6,590 bases of DNA from Nanobdellota archaeon (GTDB taxonomy: Archaea; Nanobdellota; Nanobdellia; Nanobdellales; Nanobdellaceae): NCBI GenBank assembly GCA_020697515.1, contig JAIXNB010000052.1, positions 1-6,590 on the forward strand, written 5' to 3'. Shown here piece after piece: positions 2-6,306 of this stretch (position 1 is the stretch's first letter; every line of letters starts with the position of its first letter). Under the pieces are notes generated by a model. That model ran no database searches. It had not been told where the DNA came from and saw only the letters and a program-made list of their open reading frames with translations. A program made the translations under genes and the position numbers.

Positions 2-217
2 AATATAGACGTAGCGCGTTTCAGTACCTCATTAAATAATATAATAACAGCTCTCGAGGGTGTGAAAAATGAGATAGATAAGATAAAGAAGATGGAAATA
101 CAAGAGGATAATATAGCAAATGCATTAAATACAATTTTGAATGAAGAAAGGGAAATAATAAAAAAGATAGAGAAGGAATTAGAAAGGATTGTAAATGTCT
201 ATCACGCACACCCCTAA
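2..217 (+). CDS. 3' end of a coiled-coil protein (partial; start lies upstream of the window)
   Basis: Not in the supplied ORF track because it has no start in the window. Frame 2 is open from the window edge for 71 codons and ends at TAA 215-217. The translation NIDVARFSTSLNNIITALEGVKNEIDKIKKMEIQEDNIANALNTILNEEREIIKKIEKELERIVNVYHAHP is K/E/I/N-rich and heptad-like, matching the other proteins here. The 66-aa minus ORF 21..221 (L/S/F/P-rich) looks like its antisense shadow. Confidence 0.55.
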   Translation, partial: NIDVARFSTSLNNIITALEGVKNEIDKIKKMEIQEDNIANALNTILNEEREIIKKIEKELERIVNVYHAHP

Positions 218-1374
218 CCAATTTTATTTTTTATTCCCAAACTTTCAGCATAATCATCCGGATCTAAAGTAATTATATATCCTTCAGATGTTTCTTCTAA
301 TCTATGTTTGGATCTACCAACCCTTTGTACTAATCTAGAAACTTGTCTAGGAGATGTATATTGTATTACCACGTCGACATGCCCTATATCTATCCCCAAC
401 TCTAAAGAGGATGTTGCAATTATTGCTTTAAGCTTTCCTTCCTTTAACAATTTCTCATTCCTCTCCCTAACTTCCCTAGACAAAGAACTATGATGTATTT
501 CTACAGGGAGATCGGGATATAATTTTTTAAATCTAGAAGTTAACAGCTCCGCCATTTCTCTAGTATTAACAAAAACTATTGCACTTCTAACAGAATTTAA
601 TATTTCTTTCATTTTTCTTAAAGACCAAACAATCTTTGGATGCCATCCTAATTGCTTAGCAAGTTTTTCATCATCTTTATTTATATCATGAGGATAAATA
701 ACCTCAATTTTATACTTTTTCTTTTCATACCATTTGATTACACTATACTCCCTATTGCCAAAAATGAATTTAGCGGCTAAATCCACATCACCAATTGTAG
801 CAGAAAGCGCTATTCTTTGAAACTCTCCAGCAAAGTTAACAAGCCTTTCCAGGCCTAAAGACAGTTGCACACCTCGCTTATCATCCAACAATTCATGCAG
901 TTCGTCTATTATAACAAATCTTACAGCTTTTAGATGTTCTTTTATTCTTTTTCCCATAAACAGAACTTGGAGGGTCTCTGGAGTAGTTATCAGAAACTCT
1001 GGTGGTATTTTACTTTGTTTGATCCTTTCAGATTTAGGAGTATCCCCATGCCTTACTGCGATTGATATATTTAAATTTTCACACCACCAATATAATCTAC
1101 TCAAAAGATCTCTATTTAGTGCCCTTAGGGGGGTGATATAAAGAGTAAGAATTCCTTTAGAGTCTGTATTTTCCTTTATTTCAAGTATTCTATTAAGTAC
1201 TGGAATCACTGCGCTTTCTGTTTTTCCAGCCCCTGTAGGAGCTACAATCAAAGTATTTTTACCTTTTACAATCTCTGGAATAGTTAATCTTTGTAATTCA
1301 TTAAAACTCCTAAATTTAGAATAGAATAATTTCAGAATTTCTGTTCGTAACAACATACACATTTCTTTATTCAT
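214..1374 (-). CDS. lhr: Lhr-type (COG1201-like) DEXH-box ATP-dependent helicase, RecA1+RecA2 core only (386 aa)
   Basis: Superfamily 2 (SF2) helicase motifs in order: I APTGAGKT, Ia TPLRALNRD, Ib TTPE, II DELH, III SAT, V ATSSLELGIDIG, VI QRVGRSKH. HHSSLSREVR and ATSSLELGID are Lhr-typical strings. The ORF ends at TAG 214-216, about 30 aa after motif VI, so the winged-helix domain and domain 4 of Lhr-core are absent. Confidence 0.85.
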   Translation of the reverse strand: MNKEMCMLLRTEILKLFYSKFRSFNELQRLTIPEIVKGKNTLIVAPTGAGKTESAVIPVLNRILEIKENTDSKGILTLYITPLRALNRDLLSRLYWWCENLNISIAVRHGDTPKSERIKQSKIPPEFLITTPETLQVLFMGKRIKEHLKAVRFVIIDELHELLDDKRGVQLSLGLERLVNFAGEFQRIALSATIGDVDLAAKFIFGNREYSVIKWYEKKKYKIEVIYPHDINKDDEKLAKQLGWHPKIVWSLRKMKEILNSVRSAIVFVNTREMAELLTSRFKKLYPDLPVEIHHSSLSREVRERNEKLLKEGKLKAIIATSSLELGIDIGHVDVVIQYTSPRQVSRLVQRVGRSKHRLEETSEGYIITLDPDDYAESLGIKNKIG

Positions 1375-1678: not shown

Positions 1679-2332
1679 TTAAAGAAGTAGTGTCCCATCT
1701 AATGCTAATACATTATAGGAATCTATATCTTTTGTTAATGGTCCATGGAATTTGCCAACCTCCCAGAAACCAACAAGGTTTGAAAATGCTGGTAGGATAA
1801 GAAAATCGTACTCTCCAGTTTCCCCATATACAAATACCTTCTCATAGAAACTCTCTCCAATAGAAGATTTTATATTTATAGCAAAATGATGATGTCCTAA
1901 TATATATAACTTTCCTTTAAGTCTCGGGCGGGTGTGTCCATGAAGAAAAACTACTTTACCTACTCTAAACTCTCTAACTATTATTATATTTGGATTATCA
2001 TTTAGTTTCTCTAAAGATCCATCATGATTTCCCTTTGTAATTACTATTTTTTTAAATATGTTAGAGAGTTTCTGCAATAGCATGGGGACCTCCTTTAACT
2101 CAATATAGCTAACTCTTGGTACATTATGCTTAAAATCTCCAGTGATTATCAATTTACTAACATTATATCTCGCTTTTAGTTGCTTTATTCTGCTATATAT
2201 GCTCTGTGTCTGCGCTGGGATATTAATCCCTTTTTGTAGAAGCTCTTTTTCTATTCCAATATGCAAATCTGAAATAACTAGATATTGTTTTTTAAATATG
2301 ATTGCTTCAGTATTTGTAAAATCTATAAACAA
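1679..2332 (-). CDS. Calcineurin-like metallophosphoesterase, COG1407 / ligase-associated PdeM-like (217 aa)
   Basis: Full metallophosphoesterase (MPE) motif set: DLHIG (DxH), GDFKH (GD), GNHD (GNH[DE]), LHGH, GHHH. The size, about 220 aa, is typical of the small MPE genes linked to Lhr helicases. There is no in-frame ATG before the DxH motif. The only plausible start is TTG 2330-2332, directly abutting the upstream TAG stop. Confidence 0.85.
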   Translation of the reverse strand: MFIDFTNTEAIIFKKQYLVISDLHIGIEKELLQKGINIPAQTQSIYSRIKQLKARYNVSKLIITGDFKHNVPRVSYIELKEVPMLLQKLSNIFKKIVITKGNHDGSLEKLNDNPNIIIVREFRVGKVVFLHGHTRPRLKGKLYILGHHHFAINIKSSIGESFYEKVFVYGETGEYDFLILPAFSNLVGFWEVGKFHGPLTKDIDSYNVLALDGTLLL

Positions 2333-2692
2333 CTAAGAAGATCTGAAAAATTCAAAAAGAAACTTACGGATTTGGTTTATATCTTTGGCAGATTTTATTT
2401 TTTCTTGTAATTCCTTTAACTGCTCAAAGTCTTCTACTAAGAATACAGCATCTCCTATAATTTGTCCAGGTAACCCTTTTCTAAAAACAACTCTAACATT
2501 TCCATTACTCCCATGAGGTGTTGCAACTCTACCAATAAAGAATTTTTTCTTACCAGGGCTAACCCACAAAACCTTTTTACCTATCAGTTTGCTAGCTTCC
2601 CCTCGAGAACTTATATTTTCGAAATGAACAATGATTTGATTATTCCTAATAATGTGTCTACCTCTTCTATAGTTAACTACAACACCAATCAT
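2333..2692 (-). CDS. rpl35ae: Ribosomal protein L35Ae (eL33) with a 33-aa C-terminal extension
   Basis: VVNYRRG..., EASKLIGKKVLW, HGSNGNVRVVFRKGLPGQIIGD closely follow the archaeal L35Ae pattern (YRR, EA.KLIG, HG..G.VRA.F.KGLPGQ.LGD). Archaeal homologues, as I recall them, end about 9 aa after GLPGQ. This ORF continues for another 33 aa (E87-S119). Confidence 0.9.
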   Translation of the reverse strand: MIGVVVNYRRGRHIIRNNQIIVHFENISSRGEASKLIGKKVLWVSPGKKKFFIGRVATPHGSNGNVRVVFRKGLPGQIIGDAVFLVEDFEQLKELQEKIKSAKDINQIRKFLFEFFRSS

Positions 2693-2710
2693 AATTTTGT
2701 TGTTTAGAAA

Positions 2711-2722
2711 TAAATTTAAAAA
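2711..2722 (-). promoter_or_regulatory. Candidate TATA box for rpl35ae (TTTTTAAATTTA on minus strand)
   Basis: Lies at -19 to -30 relative to the ATG at 2692, consistent with a leaderless transcript. Confidence 0.4.
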
Positions 2723-3014
2723 TCAAATGTTATTATTGGATCTTTTGATGTAGATGTTTTCCTAGATGCCCTTTTTAAATTACTAAACTACTGTTCATTC
2801 CGGTTTTTAGCTTTTGTATTATCCTCTCTATTATTCTTTGTTAGGGTTTACAACTGAAAGCCTCGTCCTTTAGAGCAGGTATAAAAAAGATCTAAGTATC
2901 TTAGTGAGTTAGGGGTAACAATTAGAGTATTTCTGACAAATCCGATGTTGTTAACCGAGCCGATAAAATATTTAGGTCAGAGAAGAGGTCATCTAAAAAT
3001 AAATGTATAATAAG

Positions 3015-4745
3015 CTATTTAATTATTTGGAAATCTCCGAATATTCTCTCTAATGCATTTATTAACTTTTTATCAATAATATTTTTACCTTTATGATTAA
3101 TCTCTTTTAAAATTATTTCCTCAAATTTATCTCTGGGGAAACTATCTAACTTTTCACCAAGGTAATTATATTTATCTATTTTCTCCCCAATTACAAATAT
3201 ATAATCCTCCGTAGGATACACATCGTATTTCTTACCAGCGCTTACTATCTCTATGCTGTATTTAGAAACTAACTCAGACTTTTTACCTTCAACTAAGTAT
3301 CTTAAGAACCGATTCATGTTAATTATATTATTTTTCAGTCTATTCACATCTACTACATCCAATTTTTGGTCTCTATACAGTTTTATATCATTTATTAGTT
3401 TGTTCAATAACTGCAATTCTGTAGGAAACTTTTTTCTGAATATATCTTCTATAGAGCTTCCATAAAGGTCCTCTAGCTGTGCTTTAAGACTATAAAATTC
3501 TTGGATATAATATGATATTTCTTCTTTTTCCTTCTCAGCATCAATCTGTGTTTTTAATCTTTTCATCCTGCTAATAAATTCCTTTGCTATATTTAACCAC
3601 TCCTCAACTTCTTTTCCAGTTACTGTTTCCTTTCTTTTATGCTCTATATCCTTTCTAATTTTCACGATTTCTTCCAATTTTTTAGCATACTTTTCTTCTA
3701 GCAGTTTTTTATTTTCAACAAATATTTTCTTTAGCAATACTGAGGTTTCTTTTGGATCAGGAGGAAGCAATCCATAATCCATTAATGCAGCTTGTGCTGC
3801 AGTTACCATAGATAGGGCGACATCCTCCATTAATATTGTTCTTAATTTATTTTCTGCTTCCCTTATAGTATTCTCGGCCATATTCAAGTATATTTCAGCA
3901 GCTTCTCTCGACGGTTTTATAATACCTTTGATTAAAAGTTGTTTCCATGCTATAAATGTCCCTCTATCATATAAAGCTAATCCGTCTCTCAGGAAAGTGA
4001 TTATTACTGGATTTGCTTCAGACATTGCCAGCCAAAACTCCGTTAGTGTATAAACCTGAGGATGCAATATTTTTTTAGACTGGGTTATCATCATTGCTTT
4101 CATGGCTTCTTGAGTTACTATAGAGTATAATTTTTGCTTAAGTTCTACAAAAGTATGTAATTTTACATCAGTGTCATCTATAACAACGTATACATCCACA
4201 TCCGAGCTCTCAGTAGCCTTACCTTTTATATAAGATCCTGCTAATACATAAGCAACTACATATTTTTGGAATATTTCTAGTACTAAACCTTTATGTACTA
4301 GAGCCAACTTGAATATTTCATATAAACCTTTATCATGGTGTACCTTCGCTTTTAAAAAGATATCGAATAACTCAAACTTAGAGTCCATCGATATTTGTTT
4401 TATGTCATCTAAAAGCAAAATATGTAACCATATATCTCGATTTTTTTGTTTTATGATTTCGAGCAACTCTTGATAAGCTGTTGCTTTTAGTTTTAATTTA
4501 TCCTGAGGTTTCTCAAGATCGAAATCAGATAAGACAATTACATAATGTCGATAATTCTCTAATTTTTCCTTAAATTGTTGCTTTAGTTCCTCTAGATTGA
4601 TTTCTGGTAAAGTCGAATATGTTAATAATGCATCTACGACTGATGCAAAGTCTTTATCGAGCTTAGGTGGTTGGAACTCTATGATGAATTGTACTTTGTT
4701 TTTAATTTTACTATTTAAAACCTCTTCCACAAAAGTTTCCCCCAT
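3015..4745 (-). CDS. 576-aa multidomain protein: unknown N-terminal region + Pol-beta-type minimal NTase + HEPN-like helical domain (Rx4H) + coiled coil + unknown C-terminal domain
   Basis: Long uninterrupted ORF with composition like its neighbours. NTase signature GSYIKGKATESSDVD (aa 170-184). Helical domain at aa ~278-398 with RKDIEH (aa 364-369). No motif recognised in aa 1-140 or aa 400-576. Confidence 0.8.
   Translation of the reverse strand: MGETFVEEVLNSKIKNKVQFIIEFQPPKLDKDFASVVDALLTYSTLPEINLEELKQQFKEKLENYRHYVIVLSDFDLEKPQDKLKLKATAYQELLEIIKQKNRDIWLHILLLDDIKQISMDSKFELFDIFLKAKVHHDKGLYEIFKLALVHKGLVLEIFQKYVVAYVLAGSYIKGKATESSDVDVYVVIDDTDVKLHTFVELKQKLYSIVTQEAMKAMMITQSKKILHPQVYTLTEFWLAMSEANPVIITFLRDGLALYDRGTFIAWKQLLIKGIIKPSREAAEIYLNMAENTIREAENKLRTILMEDVALSMVTAAQAALMDYGLLPPDPKETSVLLKKIFVENKKLLEEKYAKKLEEIVKIRKDIEHKRKETVTGKEVEEWLNIAKEFISRMKRLKTQIDAEKEKEEISYYIQEFYSLKAQLEDLYGSSIEDIFRKKFPTELQLLNKLINDIKLYRDQKLDVVDVNRLKNNIINMNRFLRYLVEGKKSELVSKYSIEIVSAGKKYDVYPTEDYIFVIGEKIDKYNYLGEKLDSFPRDKFEEIILKEINHKGKNIIDKKLINALERIFGDFQIIK
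3552..3914 (-). other. HEPN-like four-helix domain of the 576-aa protein, aa ~278-398
   Basis: All-helical segments: REAAEIYLNMAENTIREAENKL / DVALSMVTAAQAALMDYG / LLKKIFVENKKLLEEKYAKKLEEIVKIRKDIEH / GKEVEEWLNIAKEFISRMKRL. R364-x4-H369 (nt 3639-3656, verified) matches the HEPN Rx4-6H signature. Placement directly after an NTase domain is the usual NTase/HEPN pairing. Confidence 0.5.
3921..4313 (-). other. Minimal nucleotidyltransferase (Pol-beta superfamily) domain of the 576-aa protein, aa ~145-275
   Basis: hG[GS]-x10-D-x-D motif: G170 S171 ... D182 V D184 (nt 4194-4238, verified by back-translation). It is followed by VYVVIDD and a later acidic strand (TLTEF). Domain boundaries are approximate. 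Confidence 0.7.
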
Positions 4746-4762
4746 TTATTTGTTTGAAACAA

Positions 4763-4775
4763 TAATATTTATATT
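4763..4775 (-). promoter_or_regulatory. Possible internal TATA-like box (AATATAAATATTA on minus strand) for the 576-aa gene
   Basis: Lies at -18 to -30 relative to the ATG at 4745 and overlaps the HIT stop codon (4769-4771). No Shine-Dalgarno-like purine run is visible in the 23-nt gap. The gene may therefore have its own leaderless promoter, or be co-transcribed with HIT. Confidence 0.3.
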
Positions 4776-5335
4776 TTCCTAAGAAACCATATGAGCATTT
4801 TGCTATAGTCCTTCTCTTTATCTTTATGATTCCTGTTTGTTTTTTTATCTTTAGAAAAGACTTCTGTTTTTGTAGGGTCCTTATTAATATGAATATTCTC
4901 TGTATAATTCCTATTAGTATTATATTTATTTAGGGCTGATACTATTGCGTTTTGGATTTGCTGAAACACCTGCGGATTTAATTGCTTTCTTGACCATTCA
5001 AAGTGTATACTATCTTCTTTATATCTTGGAATAATATGGAGTACTATGTGCGGGGTTTTCTGCCCTGCATATTTTCCAGATGCTAAATACAGATTAATAC
5101 CGTCAGCATTCAAAGTACTTGTAAGGACTGAAGATATATATTTTGCTAGGACAAACATTTTGCCAATAATGTTATCCGGAATATCCTCAAATCTTGAAAA
5201 ATGATTTTTTGGGAAAACCAATATATGTCCAGGGTTTGCTGGGTAGAGGTCTAAAACAGCAATAATATCATTATCTTCAAATATTATAAAAGAGGCTAAT
5301 TGTTTGCTAGCAATTTTGCAAAATACGCACTCCAT
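4769..5335 (-). CDS. HIT (histidine triad) superfamily protein, Hint-like, with atypical triad and a Lys-rich C-terminal tail (188 aa)
   Basis: N-terminal CVFCKI (CxxC zinc motif of Hint-type HITs), DLYPANPGHILVFPK (compare D..P.ap.H.LviPK), and GQKTPHIVLHIIPR at the position of GQ.V.H.H.H.IPR. The core is about 135 aa, followed by a roughly 50-aa N/K/D-rich tail. Confidence 0.85.
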   Translation of the reverse strand: MECVFCKIASKQLASFIIFEDNDIIAVLDLYPANPGHILVFPKNHFSRFEDIPDNIIGKMFVLAKYISSVLTSTLNADGINLYLASGKYAGQKTPHIVLHIIPRYKEDSIHFEWSRKQLNPQVFQQIQNAIVSALNKYNTNRNYTENIHINKDPTKTEVFSKDKKTNRNHKDKEKDYSKMLIWFLRKI

Positions 5336-5370: not shown

Positions 5371-6306
5371 ATGTTAGATCTCATTGTTCTAATCGCAATT
5401 AGCGTGTTATTGATGATTGTAAGTTCAGATATTCTAGTAAAATCCATAATAGAATTTTCAAAAAAGATAGATTTTCCCCCTTATTTAATAACCTTTTTTT
5501 CTATATCTTTGGGATCCTCTCTGCCAGAAATATTAAATGCTATAATATTCTCCGTGAACAGACACCCTCAAATAGGATTATTTACAATCCTAAATAATTT
5601 GGTTATAGATTTTACATTGGTATTTGGATTAAGCATTCTCCTTTCAAGATCTCTTAAAGATCTTTATTTAAACAAACAGTATGTAATCGCAATGATTCTC
5701 GTTTATATATTATTTTTATTCTCTGTTTTAGATGGATATTTATCTATGACTGAAGGTATGATGTTATTTATATCTTATGGGATAACATTCACTTCTTTCA
5801 TAATAAAAAATATAGATAATTTGAAAGTTAAGAAATCCCTAGATATACCATTGAAGGATGGGTTGAAGTATTCCTTTATGATCGCAGCATCCATTTTTGT
5901 TCTGATAGTTAATGCAAACTTAATATATGTACTATCTATAATACTTATGAAACATTTTAGGATACCCTATTTCATAATTGGATATATATTGGGGTTTCTA
6001 ACAGTTATGCCGGAGTTTCTAGTAACACTAATATCTTATTTCTCCTTAAAAAGGGAAGATATTGCAATATTTAATCTATTTGGATCATTTATTACAGACT
6101 TAACTTTCGGCATTGGTATCTCTGCGGCGATTATTCCATTTTCCATAAAGATGCATATATTTTTATTGTATATTACCATGTTAGTGCTTTATATATCTAT
6201 GGTGTTATCAGATCTTGTTATAATTGGTAAAAAAATACCAAAAGAAGTAGGATTGTTATTAATCGGAGGCTACCTGATATACTCTTTTATATATCTATCT
6301 TGGTGA
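5371..6306 (+). CDS. CaCA-family cation/Ca2+ exchanger (YrbG / NCX_Mj-like), about 10 transmembrane (TM) segments, 311 aa
   Basis: Hydrophobic throughout, with a central polar loop (aa ~145-165) splitting two halves. Alpha-1 repeat GSSLPE (aa 48-53, nt 5512-5529, verified). Alpha-2 repeat LTVMPE (aa 210-215). GSFITD in the second half corresponds to GS.I.D of alpha-2. Size and layout match archaeal NCX-type exchangers. Confidence 0.7.
   Translation: MLDLIVLIAISVLLMIVSSDILVKSIIEFSKKIDFPPYLITFFSISLGSSLPEILNAIIFSVNRHPQIGLFTILNNLVIDFTLVFGLSILLSRSLKDLYLNKQYVIAMILVYILFLFSVLDGYLSMTEGMMLFISYGITFTSFIIKNIDNLKVKKSLDIPLKDGLKYSFMIAASIFVLIVNANLIYVLSIILMKHFRIPYFIIGYILGFLTVMPEFLVTLISYFSLKREDIAIFNLFGSFITDLTFGIGISAAIIPFSIKMHIFLLYITMLVLYISMVLSDLVIIGKKIPKEVGLLLIGGYLIYSFIYLSW

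Follow-up and report, generated by a model that had tools for sequence, protein, structure and literature searches.

A conserved single-chain fusion of duplicated minimal nucleotidyltransferase domains with a HEPN-family domain in Nanoarchaeota, possibly a domesticated housekeeping nucleotidyltransferase

Results

Domain organization of a 576-residue nanoarchaeal protein

The stretch of DNA analyzed here, referred to as the window, comprises the 6,590 nucleotides (nt) of contig JAIXNB010000052.1 and has a G+C content of ~30%. Its central gene encodes a 576-residue protein that shares 100% identity with a GenBank 'hypothetical protein' (P0001) from Candidatus Nanopusillus sp., a DPANN nanoarchaeon, and all genes around this open reading frame (ORF) lie on the minus strand. 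The chain contains two copies of a minimal nucleotidyltransferase (MNT) domain, one degenerate and one active-looking, followed by a four-helix domain of the HEPN family and a C-terminal helical and β-rich domain. We give about even chances to the reading that it is a domesticated MNT–HEPN housekeeping nucleotidyltransferase (NTase), conserved across Nanoarchaeota, whose HEPN-derived lobe binds a hypothetical acceptor. An earlier note on this DNA had described an NTase followed by a HEPN-like domain, fused in cis and flanked by additional N- and C-terminal regions; Pfam, a profile match to the structure 2HSB and an AlphaFold2 (AF2) model all bear out this arrangement, which is composed of the following elements:

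3015–4745, minus strand: 576-residue ORF with degenerate MNT, active-looking MNT, HEPN-T and helical/β C-terminal domain (ORF list, Pfam, AF2)
4296–4745, minus strand: degenerate MNT duplicate, res. 1–150 (hhalign, consensus and invariant columns)
3912–4295, minus strand: active-looking Pol-beta/MNT NTase domain, res. 151–278 (PF18765 and PF01909 above cut-off)
4194–4238, minus strand: hG[GS]-x10-D-x-D catalytic signature GSYIKGKATESSDVD, res. 170–184
3546–3911, minus strand: HEPN-T (PF05168/UPF0332-like) four-helix domain, res. 279–400 (PF05168, 2HSB, AF2)
3639–3656, minus strand: RKDIEH, res. 364–369, at the end of HEPN helix 3
3018–3545, minus strand: C-terminal domain, res. 401–576, consisting of a helical bundle, a five-strand β-meander and two helices (AF2 sub-model)

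A conserved NTase domain and its degenerate duplicate

The catalytic signature of the active-looking NTase domain had been read correctly in the earlier note, residues and coordinates alike, and two Pfam models match the domain above their cut-offs: Polbeta (PF18765; res. 157–226, E 5.7e-7, 30.0 bits versus a cut-off of 26.9) and NTP_transf_2 (PF01909; 26.1 bits versus 21). The MNT-typical motif FLRDGxxxYDRG closes the domain. When the 576-residue protein is shuffled, the pattern G[GS]x9-13Dx[DE] arises in 5.6% of the shuffles. Conservation was counted over 145 family representatives clustered at 50% identity, with denominators that differ by column. Across this set, the glycine and serine of the signature are kept in 114/114 (G170) and 107/114 (S171) sequences, its two aspartates in 110/113 (D182) and 109/113 (D184), and the downstream acidic pair in 100/113 (D190) and 111/113 (D191). 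The catalytic residues of the NTase are thus essentially invariant, which implies a selected enzymatic activity.

The ~140 N-terminal residues, in which the earlier note recognized no motif, turn out to be a degenerate duplicate of the same domain. Residues 59–147 align by hhalign with residues 176–269 of the NTase domain at a probability of 97.9% and an E-value of 3.2e-13. In the hhalign register and in the family consensus, the duplicate has PP in place of GS and has lost the DxD carboxylates; D74, the equivalent of D191, is invariant. The N-terminal duplication sets the chain order as dead MNT, live MNT, then HEPN.

Three full-length members of the family (P0161, P0162 and P0203) are devoid of both the NTase catalytic residues and the HEPN motif. 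Their GS is changed to GD, GA or GE and their DxD to ExN, PxK or ExE; these paralogues or orthologues are apparently without any activity.

A HEPN-T domain with a variable Rx4H motif

The helical domain that follows the NTase is recognized by the Pfam HEPN model PF05168 at residues 284–396 (E 4e-4), with a score of 21.0 bits that falls 1 bit below the cut-off of 22 and a match spanning profile positions 2–116 of 117. A profile built from 29 family sequences matches the HEPN structure 2HSB (AF0298, UPF0332) with an E-value of 6.9e-5, the motifs of the two being aligned. AF2 places the helices of this domain at residues 280–324, 331–345, 351–368 and 377–428. The assignment of RKDIEH to the third helix in the earlier note is confirmed, and the AF2 model puts the motif at the end of helix 3, the canonical position of the Rx4-6H motif of HEPN domains (Anantharaman et al. 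2013, PMC3710099). The pattern itself is common by chance, appearing in 58% of shuffles of the 576-residue protein and a further time in the protein at residue 103; the motif is therefore meaningful only through its homologous position.

The arginine and histidine of this motif, whose conservation among orthologues had been expected if the domain were a HEPN RNase, are not kept as a pair. R364 is found in 70/124 representatives and is replaced by Tyr (31), His (5), Phe (5) or Trp (4); H369 is found in 92/124 (Tyr in 15). The two occur jointly in 51/123 representatives (41%), as against 106/119 of the close relatives listed in the first search. What is conserved instead is the interior of the motif, with K365 in 111/124 and E368 in 109/123 sequences. 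From these counts, the family motif is [R/aromatic]-K-x-x-E-[H/Y]. Of the representatives with an intact GS...DxD, 36 have no R364, and about a third have Tyr, Phe, Trp or His at that position. Since the transferase residues are invariant and the RNase residues dispensable, we argue that the conserved function is nucleotidyl transfer and that the HEPN helix serves as a binding element. The interchange of arginine and aromatic side chains next to a retained K365/E368 core would fit a binding or stacking role better than acid–base RNase chemistry.

A further position bears on comparison with toxin–antitoxin (TA) systems. The tyrosine two residues past the motif histidine (Rx4HxY) is, we assume, the AMPylated acceptor site of HepT. 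The corresponding position 371 is an arginine in the window protein and is never a conserved tyrosine in the motif strings of the representatives. Covariation was also considered between position 364 and position 174 of the GS loop; the score was high, and the signal was judged phylogenetic because Arg174 occurs with Arg and with Tyr at 364 alike.

C-terminal domain and overall fold

A coiled coil and then a β-rich end had been read at the C-terminus in the earlier note; the AF2 prediction confirms long helices, which extend to about residue 496, and β-structure after them. A sub-model of residues 396–576 has a predicted local distance difference test score (pLDDT) of 93 and a predicted template modelling score (pTM) of 0.81. 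When this sub-model was compared with the Protein Data Bank (PDB) using Foldseek, no significant match was found (best E 0.12), and a Pfam scan of residues 401–576 gave no match. We considered whether the C-terminal helices could be a second, degenerate HEPN domain that would make the protein a single-chain MNT2:HEPN2 assembly. This idea was rejected as unsupported: hhalign aligned the two in the expected register, RKDxEH against KKDYD, with an E-value of 0.02 and a probability of 2.4%, and no HEPN structure was among the Foldseek matches of the sub-model.

The AF2 model of the whole chain, built from the 29-sequence family alignment, has a pLDDT of 88 and a pTM of 0.54. A single-sequence search of the PDB with the 576-residue protein returned no match. 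Foldseek against the PDB retrieved three groups of structures with E-values of 5e-4 to 5e-2. The first comprises two-lobed NTases, namely AAD(9), AadA, ANT(4')/KNTase, LinB and GlnE; the second comprises MntA antitoxins, including complexes with an AMPylated HEPN protein; the third is Hailong HalB. No structure in the PDB covered the whole 576-residue chain.

A large family restricted to DPANN archaea

A word-index search retrieved 1047 homologues, and an exhaustive profile search gave 925 representatives clustered at 50% identity, of which 280 reach E<=1e-30. Relatives are encoded in at least 583 species-level genomes, and the genome labels are nearly all Nanoarchaeota, Woesearchaeota, Nanopusillaceae or Nanobdellota; the exceptions are one Aenigmatarchaeota label and a number of metagenome bins that carry the label Methanosarcinales or plain 'archaeon'. 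DPANN genomes are extremely reduced, so a protein of ~600 residues kept in this many species is likely to be important. The typical member is a single chain of 570–680 residues, and Nanopusillus and Woesearchaeota sequences share 33–47% identity. Short forms of ~370–430 residues are devoid of the N-terminal domain. In about ten representatives, the family module makes up the C-terminal half of a longer protein that begins with ~700 residues of tetratricopeptide repeat (TPR) arrays, and these fusions suggest macromolecular partners. TPR-fused proteins of 1.1–1.3 thousand residues from metagenomic relatives include P0172, P0176, P0181, P0191, P0198, P0215 and P0260. Three TPR-fused relatives have Ile at the R364 position, in the motif L-I-x-x-x-K-H.

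Parts of this architecture have been described before, so the designation of the module as undescribed in the earlier note does not hold. Several homologues are named 'UPF0332 family/predicted nucleotidyltransferase' by JGI. HEPN-T domains (PF05168), either standalone or fused to MNT, appear in Table 1 of Anantharaman et al. 2013 (PMC3710099), who also noted that HEPN domains joined to an MNT typically do not have catalytic residues and have become substrate-binding or regulatory parts of domesticated TA modules, GlnE and KNTase being examples. Makarova, Wolf & Koonin 2019 (PMC6393860) listed cls.004259 (NEQ050), a DPANN-specific conserved 'MNT fused to HEPN' in a housekeeping context, among the top-priority targets of archaeal 'dark matter'; they remarked that it is unusually conserved and took it 'most probably' for a TA module that plays some important part. 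The family of the 576-residue protein is very probably this cluster, which it matches in every published descriptor. No Nanoarchaeum equitans name turned up in the clusters of 10 family representatives, and a ranking of representatives by composition and similarity did not point to NEQ050. Both are DPANN-restricted fusions of MNT and HEPN detected by profiles only, and both show unusual conservation for a TA-like architecture together with a housekeeping context. Absent from the account of cls.004259 in PMC6393860 are the dead N-terminal MNT, the domain at the C-terminus, the alternation of R and Y in the motif and any fusion to TPR arrays. A literature search found no experimental study of the family. 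Newly described here are the dead N-terminal copy of the MNT, a HEPN motif built around K and E in which position 364 alternates between R and Y, a C-terminal domain unmatched among solved structures, the fusions to TPR arrays, and, in the genomic surroundings, a CBS neighbour and a degenerate HIT protein.

Genomic context

The 576-residue gene is accompanied in the window by the following genes:

214–1374, minus strand: Lhr-type helicase core
1679–2332, minus strand: SbcD/PdeM-like metallophosphoesterase (MPE)
2333–2692, minus strand: ribosomal protein L35Ae
4769–5335, minus strand: HIT-fold ORF of 188 residues (PF01230 at 77 bits)
5371–6306, divergent: Na+/Ca2+ antiporter gene

The L35Ae gene, which the earlier note overlooked, lies between the 576-residue ORF and the MPE gene. 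The order antiporter, HIT, 576-residue gene, L35Ae, MPE, Lhr is kept in all Nanopusillaceae/Nanobdella-type loci wherever the flanking DNA suffices, including the cultured Nanobdella aerobiophila, whose homologue is 50% identical to the 576-residue protein. Outside this group, in ~74 loci, the commonest neighbour is a protein of ~180 residues with a CBS pair and a zinc ribbon. Its gene lies directly downstream on the same strand in 25/61 non-Nanopusillaceae loci and anywhere in the locus in 37/74. These ~74 loci also have S13 and S4 ribosomal protein genes and a PIN/AbrB-like pair among the neighbours, and a short-form member of the family adjoins S3Ae, S15 and a RIO kinase. Presence in at least 583 species-level genomes and neighbours such as L35Ae, S13, S4, S3Ae, S15 and RIO kinase are the distribution and context of a housekeeping gene.

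The zinc ribbon of the CBS-pair neighbour is C-terminal, of the form CxxC...CxxC (L003:8442–9005, L070:7780–8331 and 35 other loci). In Nanopusillaceae-type loci, a CBS gene is found ~5.5 kilobases (kb) away on the opposite strand. The small PIN-domain and AbrB/SpoVT-like genes are located just upstream of the family gene on the opposite strand (L037:4972–5581 and 4–7 other Woesearchaeota loci); we take them to be a classical VapBC-type TA pair.

Several further features of the window were recorded. The Lhr-type helicase (214–1374, minus strand) has 386 residues and two RecA-like domains, and matches positions 13–405 of an 877-residue model. Nanobdella has an Lhr of the same form with 384 residues (L001:8784–9938); the short or split form of Lhr is therefore conserved and no artefact of truncation. 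Between the 576-residue gene and L35Ae, the window has a 322-nt non-coding gap (2693–3014) in a position where relatives have 3–31 nt (L001, L007–L009 and L011); in L005, the L35Ae start is ~45 nt past the stop codon. The gap contains no ORF of at least 25 residues and no Rfam match, and its 5' part, faintly resembling the start of L35Ae, may be a decayed duplication or an insertion. In the 304-nt gap between helicase and MPE, positions 1426–1483 on the plus strand give sub-threshold matches to five archaeal C/D-box small RNA families, the best being sR5 (23 bits versus a gathering score of 40, E 0.037). This segment may encode an unannotated C/D-box guide RNA on the strand opposite to its two flanking genes. 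Nothing tied to the 576-residue gene emerged when the window was scanned for Rfam families and tRNAs.

A degenerate HIT protein upstream

A HIT-fold gene on the same strand, separated from the 576-residue ORF by 23 nt, is indeed present upstream as the earlier note reported. The gene lies 23–25 nt upstream in 9/9 Nanopusillaceae/Nanobdella-type loci with upstream DNA and is adjacent in none of the ~74 other loci, four of which have a HIT gene 2.7–4.7 kb away. The linkage thus does not recur across the genomes of the family; confined to one clade, it is best described as lineage-specific synteny and no family trait.

The HIT fold binds adenine nucleotides, and the central histidine of the Hint/Fhit triad is the nucleophile. 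In the window protein, the motif PHIVLHIIPR reads H-I-V-L-H-I-I, with Val replacing the central His when aligned to the HxHxH of 2EO4, 3O0M and 3IMI; aligned column by column, these solved proteins have HLHVH, HIHLH and HFHLH. The central His is lost in 8/8 readable syntenic HIT proteins, which follow the overall pattern H-x-[VFTI]-x-[HQ] (H-I-V-I-Q, H-F-V-I-H, H-I-F-I-Q, H-I-T-I-Q and H-I-I-I-Q). Unlinked HIT proteins encoded in Woesearchaeota loci retain HSHVH or HTHFH. With the central His missing, canonical covalent HIT hydrolysis of AMP adducts is unlikely, which speaks against the eraser role suggested in the earlier note. The syntenic protein looks like a conserved pseudo-HIT of Nanopusillaceae/Nanobdella, and a nucleotide-binding role is possible. 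The loci compared were the window (4769–5335, minus strand), L001:5457–5978 and L006–L011. The window HIT protein also carries a Lys-rich C-terminal tail of ~70 residues. The last part of the HIT gene overlaps with an AT-rich segment that resembles a TATA element, which is uninformative at 30% G+C.

Comparison with known systems

The combination of a GS...DxD minimal NTase and an R-x4-H HEPN domain, with MNT first, is shared with the HepT/MntA type VII TA modules (7AE9, 7BXO and 5YEP). In those modules, the domains are two small proteins encoded by two genes, whereas here they form one chain (570–680 residues in homologues) that also bears a dead MNT copy and, at its C-terminus, a domain of ~175 residues. 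The HEPN domain is of the HEPN-T/UPF0332 type, not DUF86; the tyrosine at H+2, the acceptor site in HepT, is absent; and the distribution is that of a housekeeping gene and not patchy. The last two points speak against a type VII TA-like module of the kind proposed in the earlier note. The best NCBIfam match of the protein is MntA_antitoxin (E 3.9e-7), and the MntA equivalog NF047752 scores 29.9 bits against a cut-off of 60.

The plan of a Pol-beta lobe with a helical KNTase_C/HEPN-clan lobe behind it in the same chain also recalls ANT(4')/KNTase (1KNY) and AadA/AAD(9) (6XZ0 and 5LPA). The same two-lobe plan is found in the protein adenylyltransferases GlnE and DrrA (1V4A, 3K7D and 3NKU), with substrate binding by the helical lobe, and such two-lobed NTases are the top Foldseek matches of the 576-residue protein. 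DrrA gives a weak local match to the GS...DxD...DDTD segment. GlnE likewise has two NTase modules per chain, the extra copy being dead in the 576-residue protein. The NCBIfam model for ANT(4')-II (NF028535) scores 16.5 bits versus a cut-off of 350, and a Pfam scan of the 576-residue protein gives no KNTase_C match, so the resemblance to aminoglycoside NTases is at the level of the fold only. Two further differences separate the groups. The Rx4H-like motif is kept in the helical domain here and is absent from ANT/KNTase, AadA and GlnE/DrrA, and the lineage is one of archaeal housekeeping as opposed to antibiotic resistance or nitrogen regulation for ANT, AadA and GlnE.

At the sequence level, the best relative of the helical domain over its full length is the stand-alone HEPN-T protein AF0298 (2HSB, UPF0332, PF05168), a 126-residue protein encoded beside an MNT gene. 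Its REESDY aligns with RKDIEH, having D and Y where the 576-residue family has E and H. An alternative conserved His of AF0298 aligns with P331 of the 576-residue protein.

Discussion

The reading to which we give even chances is a housekeeping NTase derived from an MNT–HEPN pair. We propose that the second MNT, bearing GS...DxD, would bind a nucleoside triphosphate and Mg2+ and transfer a nucleoside monophosphate, probably AMP, to an acceptor hydroxyl. The HEPN-derived four-helix domain would act in cis as an acceptor- or nucleotide-binding lobe, presumably through K365, E368 and the Arg or aromatic residue at position 364, much as the C-terminal helical domains do in ANT(4')/KNTase, AadA and GlnE. 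The dead N-terminal MNT may serve as a structural pseudo-dimer partner, and the C-terminal helical/β domain, with the TPR arrays of some relatives, may recruit the target, for which a protein or RNA from the cell's core machinery is the likeliest candidate. The earlier note had named a KNTase_C-like, non-catalytic substrate-binding domain as an alternative to its own proposal. Of all its suggestions, this one comes closest to the reading that the data favour.

Several observations weigh against this reading. Nucleotidyl transfer is a prediction and the acceptor is hypothetical, and the protein falls below the NCBIfam cut-offs for both ANT and MntA. Foldseek matches ANT-type enzymes only weakly (E 5e-4 to 1e-2, template modelling scores of ~0.2–0.4 and a large root-mean-square deviation), and the geometry between domains is uncertain, with the whole-chain pTM of 0.54 accompanied by pLDDT values of 62–63 at residues 281–300. 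Moreover, members of the window's own clade and its close relatives, where R-x4-H is intact (106/119), may have HEPN RNase activity.

This last point leads to the alternative of a single-chain HEPN RNase, in which dimerization of the HEPN domain would form a composite Rx4H site and the MNT would toggle its activity by AMPylation in cis or in trans, a type VII TA module having been recruited for RNA processing or stress cleavage. The placement of R-x4-H at the canonical end of helix 3, its integrity in the window and in 89% of the close relatives listed, the MntA and AMPylated-HepT structures among the Foldseek matches, the MntA_antitoxin match in NCBIfam and long C-terminal helices that could mediate dimerization are all in line with such an enzyme. 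We nonetheless regard it as unlikely. R and H are found jointly in 41% of representatives whereas the NTase residues are invariant, no Tyr occupies H+2, the acceptor position in HepT, and the MntA score falls far short of its cut-off (29.9 versus 60). TA modules do not show such a broad and conserved housekeeping distribution, and MNT-fused HEPN domains are typically inactive (PMC3710099). A bolder version combines elements of both readings: an MNT–HEPN TA complex welded into one chain would now be an essential, phylum-wide enzyme of Nanoarchaeota, in which the NTase and a still-active HEPN RNase act on a protein associated with the ribosome or on a core RNA, for instance the ends of tRNA or rRNA, with the dead HIT of Nanopusillaceae as a nucleotide-binding partner. 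We hold this to be distinctly improbable.

Two other proposals give the neighbouring genes a larger part. The system envisaged in the earlier note, with the NTase as writer, the HEPN domain as effector and the upstream HIT protein as eraser or sensor of AMP adducts, draws on the constant 23–25-nt spacing on the same strand in 9/9 Nanopusillaceae/Nanobdella-type loci and on the general knowledge that the HIT fold binds adenine nucleotides. The adjacency is, however, part of a wholly syntenic block and occurs in none of the ~74 other loci, where any HIT gene is found within 6 kb in only four. The adjacent HIT has no central nucleophilic His, whereas unlinked HIT proteins keep HxHxH, and close spacing says little about a functional link in compact genomes of ~0.6 megabases; we see hardly any likelihood in such a system. 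Scarcely more probable is a nucleotide-signal synthase or defence enzyme that would make an oligo- or dinucleotide signal in the manner of HalB and CD-NTases, with the HEPN domain, the CBS-pair protein or the HIT-like protein as receptor or effector. Hailong HalB is among the Foldseek matches, PADLOC gives weak matches to the candidate systems PDC-S09 and PDC-M05A, and the gene for the CBS-pair and zinc-ribbon protein directly follows in 25/61 non-Nanopusillaceae loci, CBS and HIT folds being generally known to bind adenine nucleotides. The PADLOC matches, though, are limited to ~55 residues of the generic MNT core, the context is not that of a defence island, and the family is distributed in a conserved, vertical-looking manner. 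The CBS linkage, present in ~40% of one set of related loci, may be mere synteny.

If the protein is indeed a housekeeping NTase with a HEPN-derived binding lobe, it would add to the cases of selfish TA modules turned into core enzymes by domestication, as has been proposed for GlnE and KNTase, and the acceptor could reveal a step of RNA or protein maintenance that is specific to the lineage.

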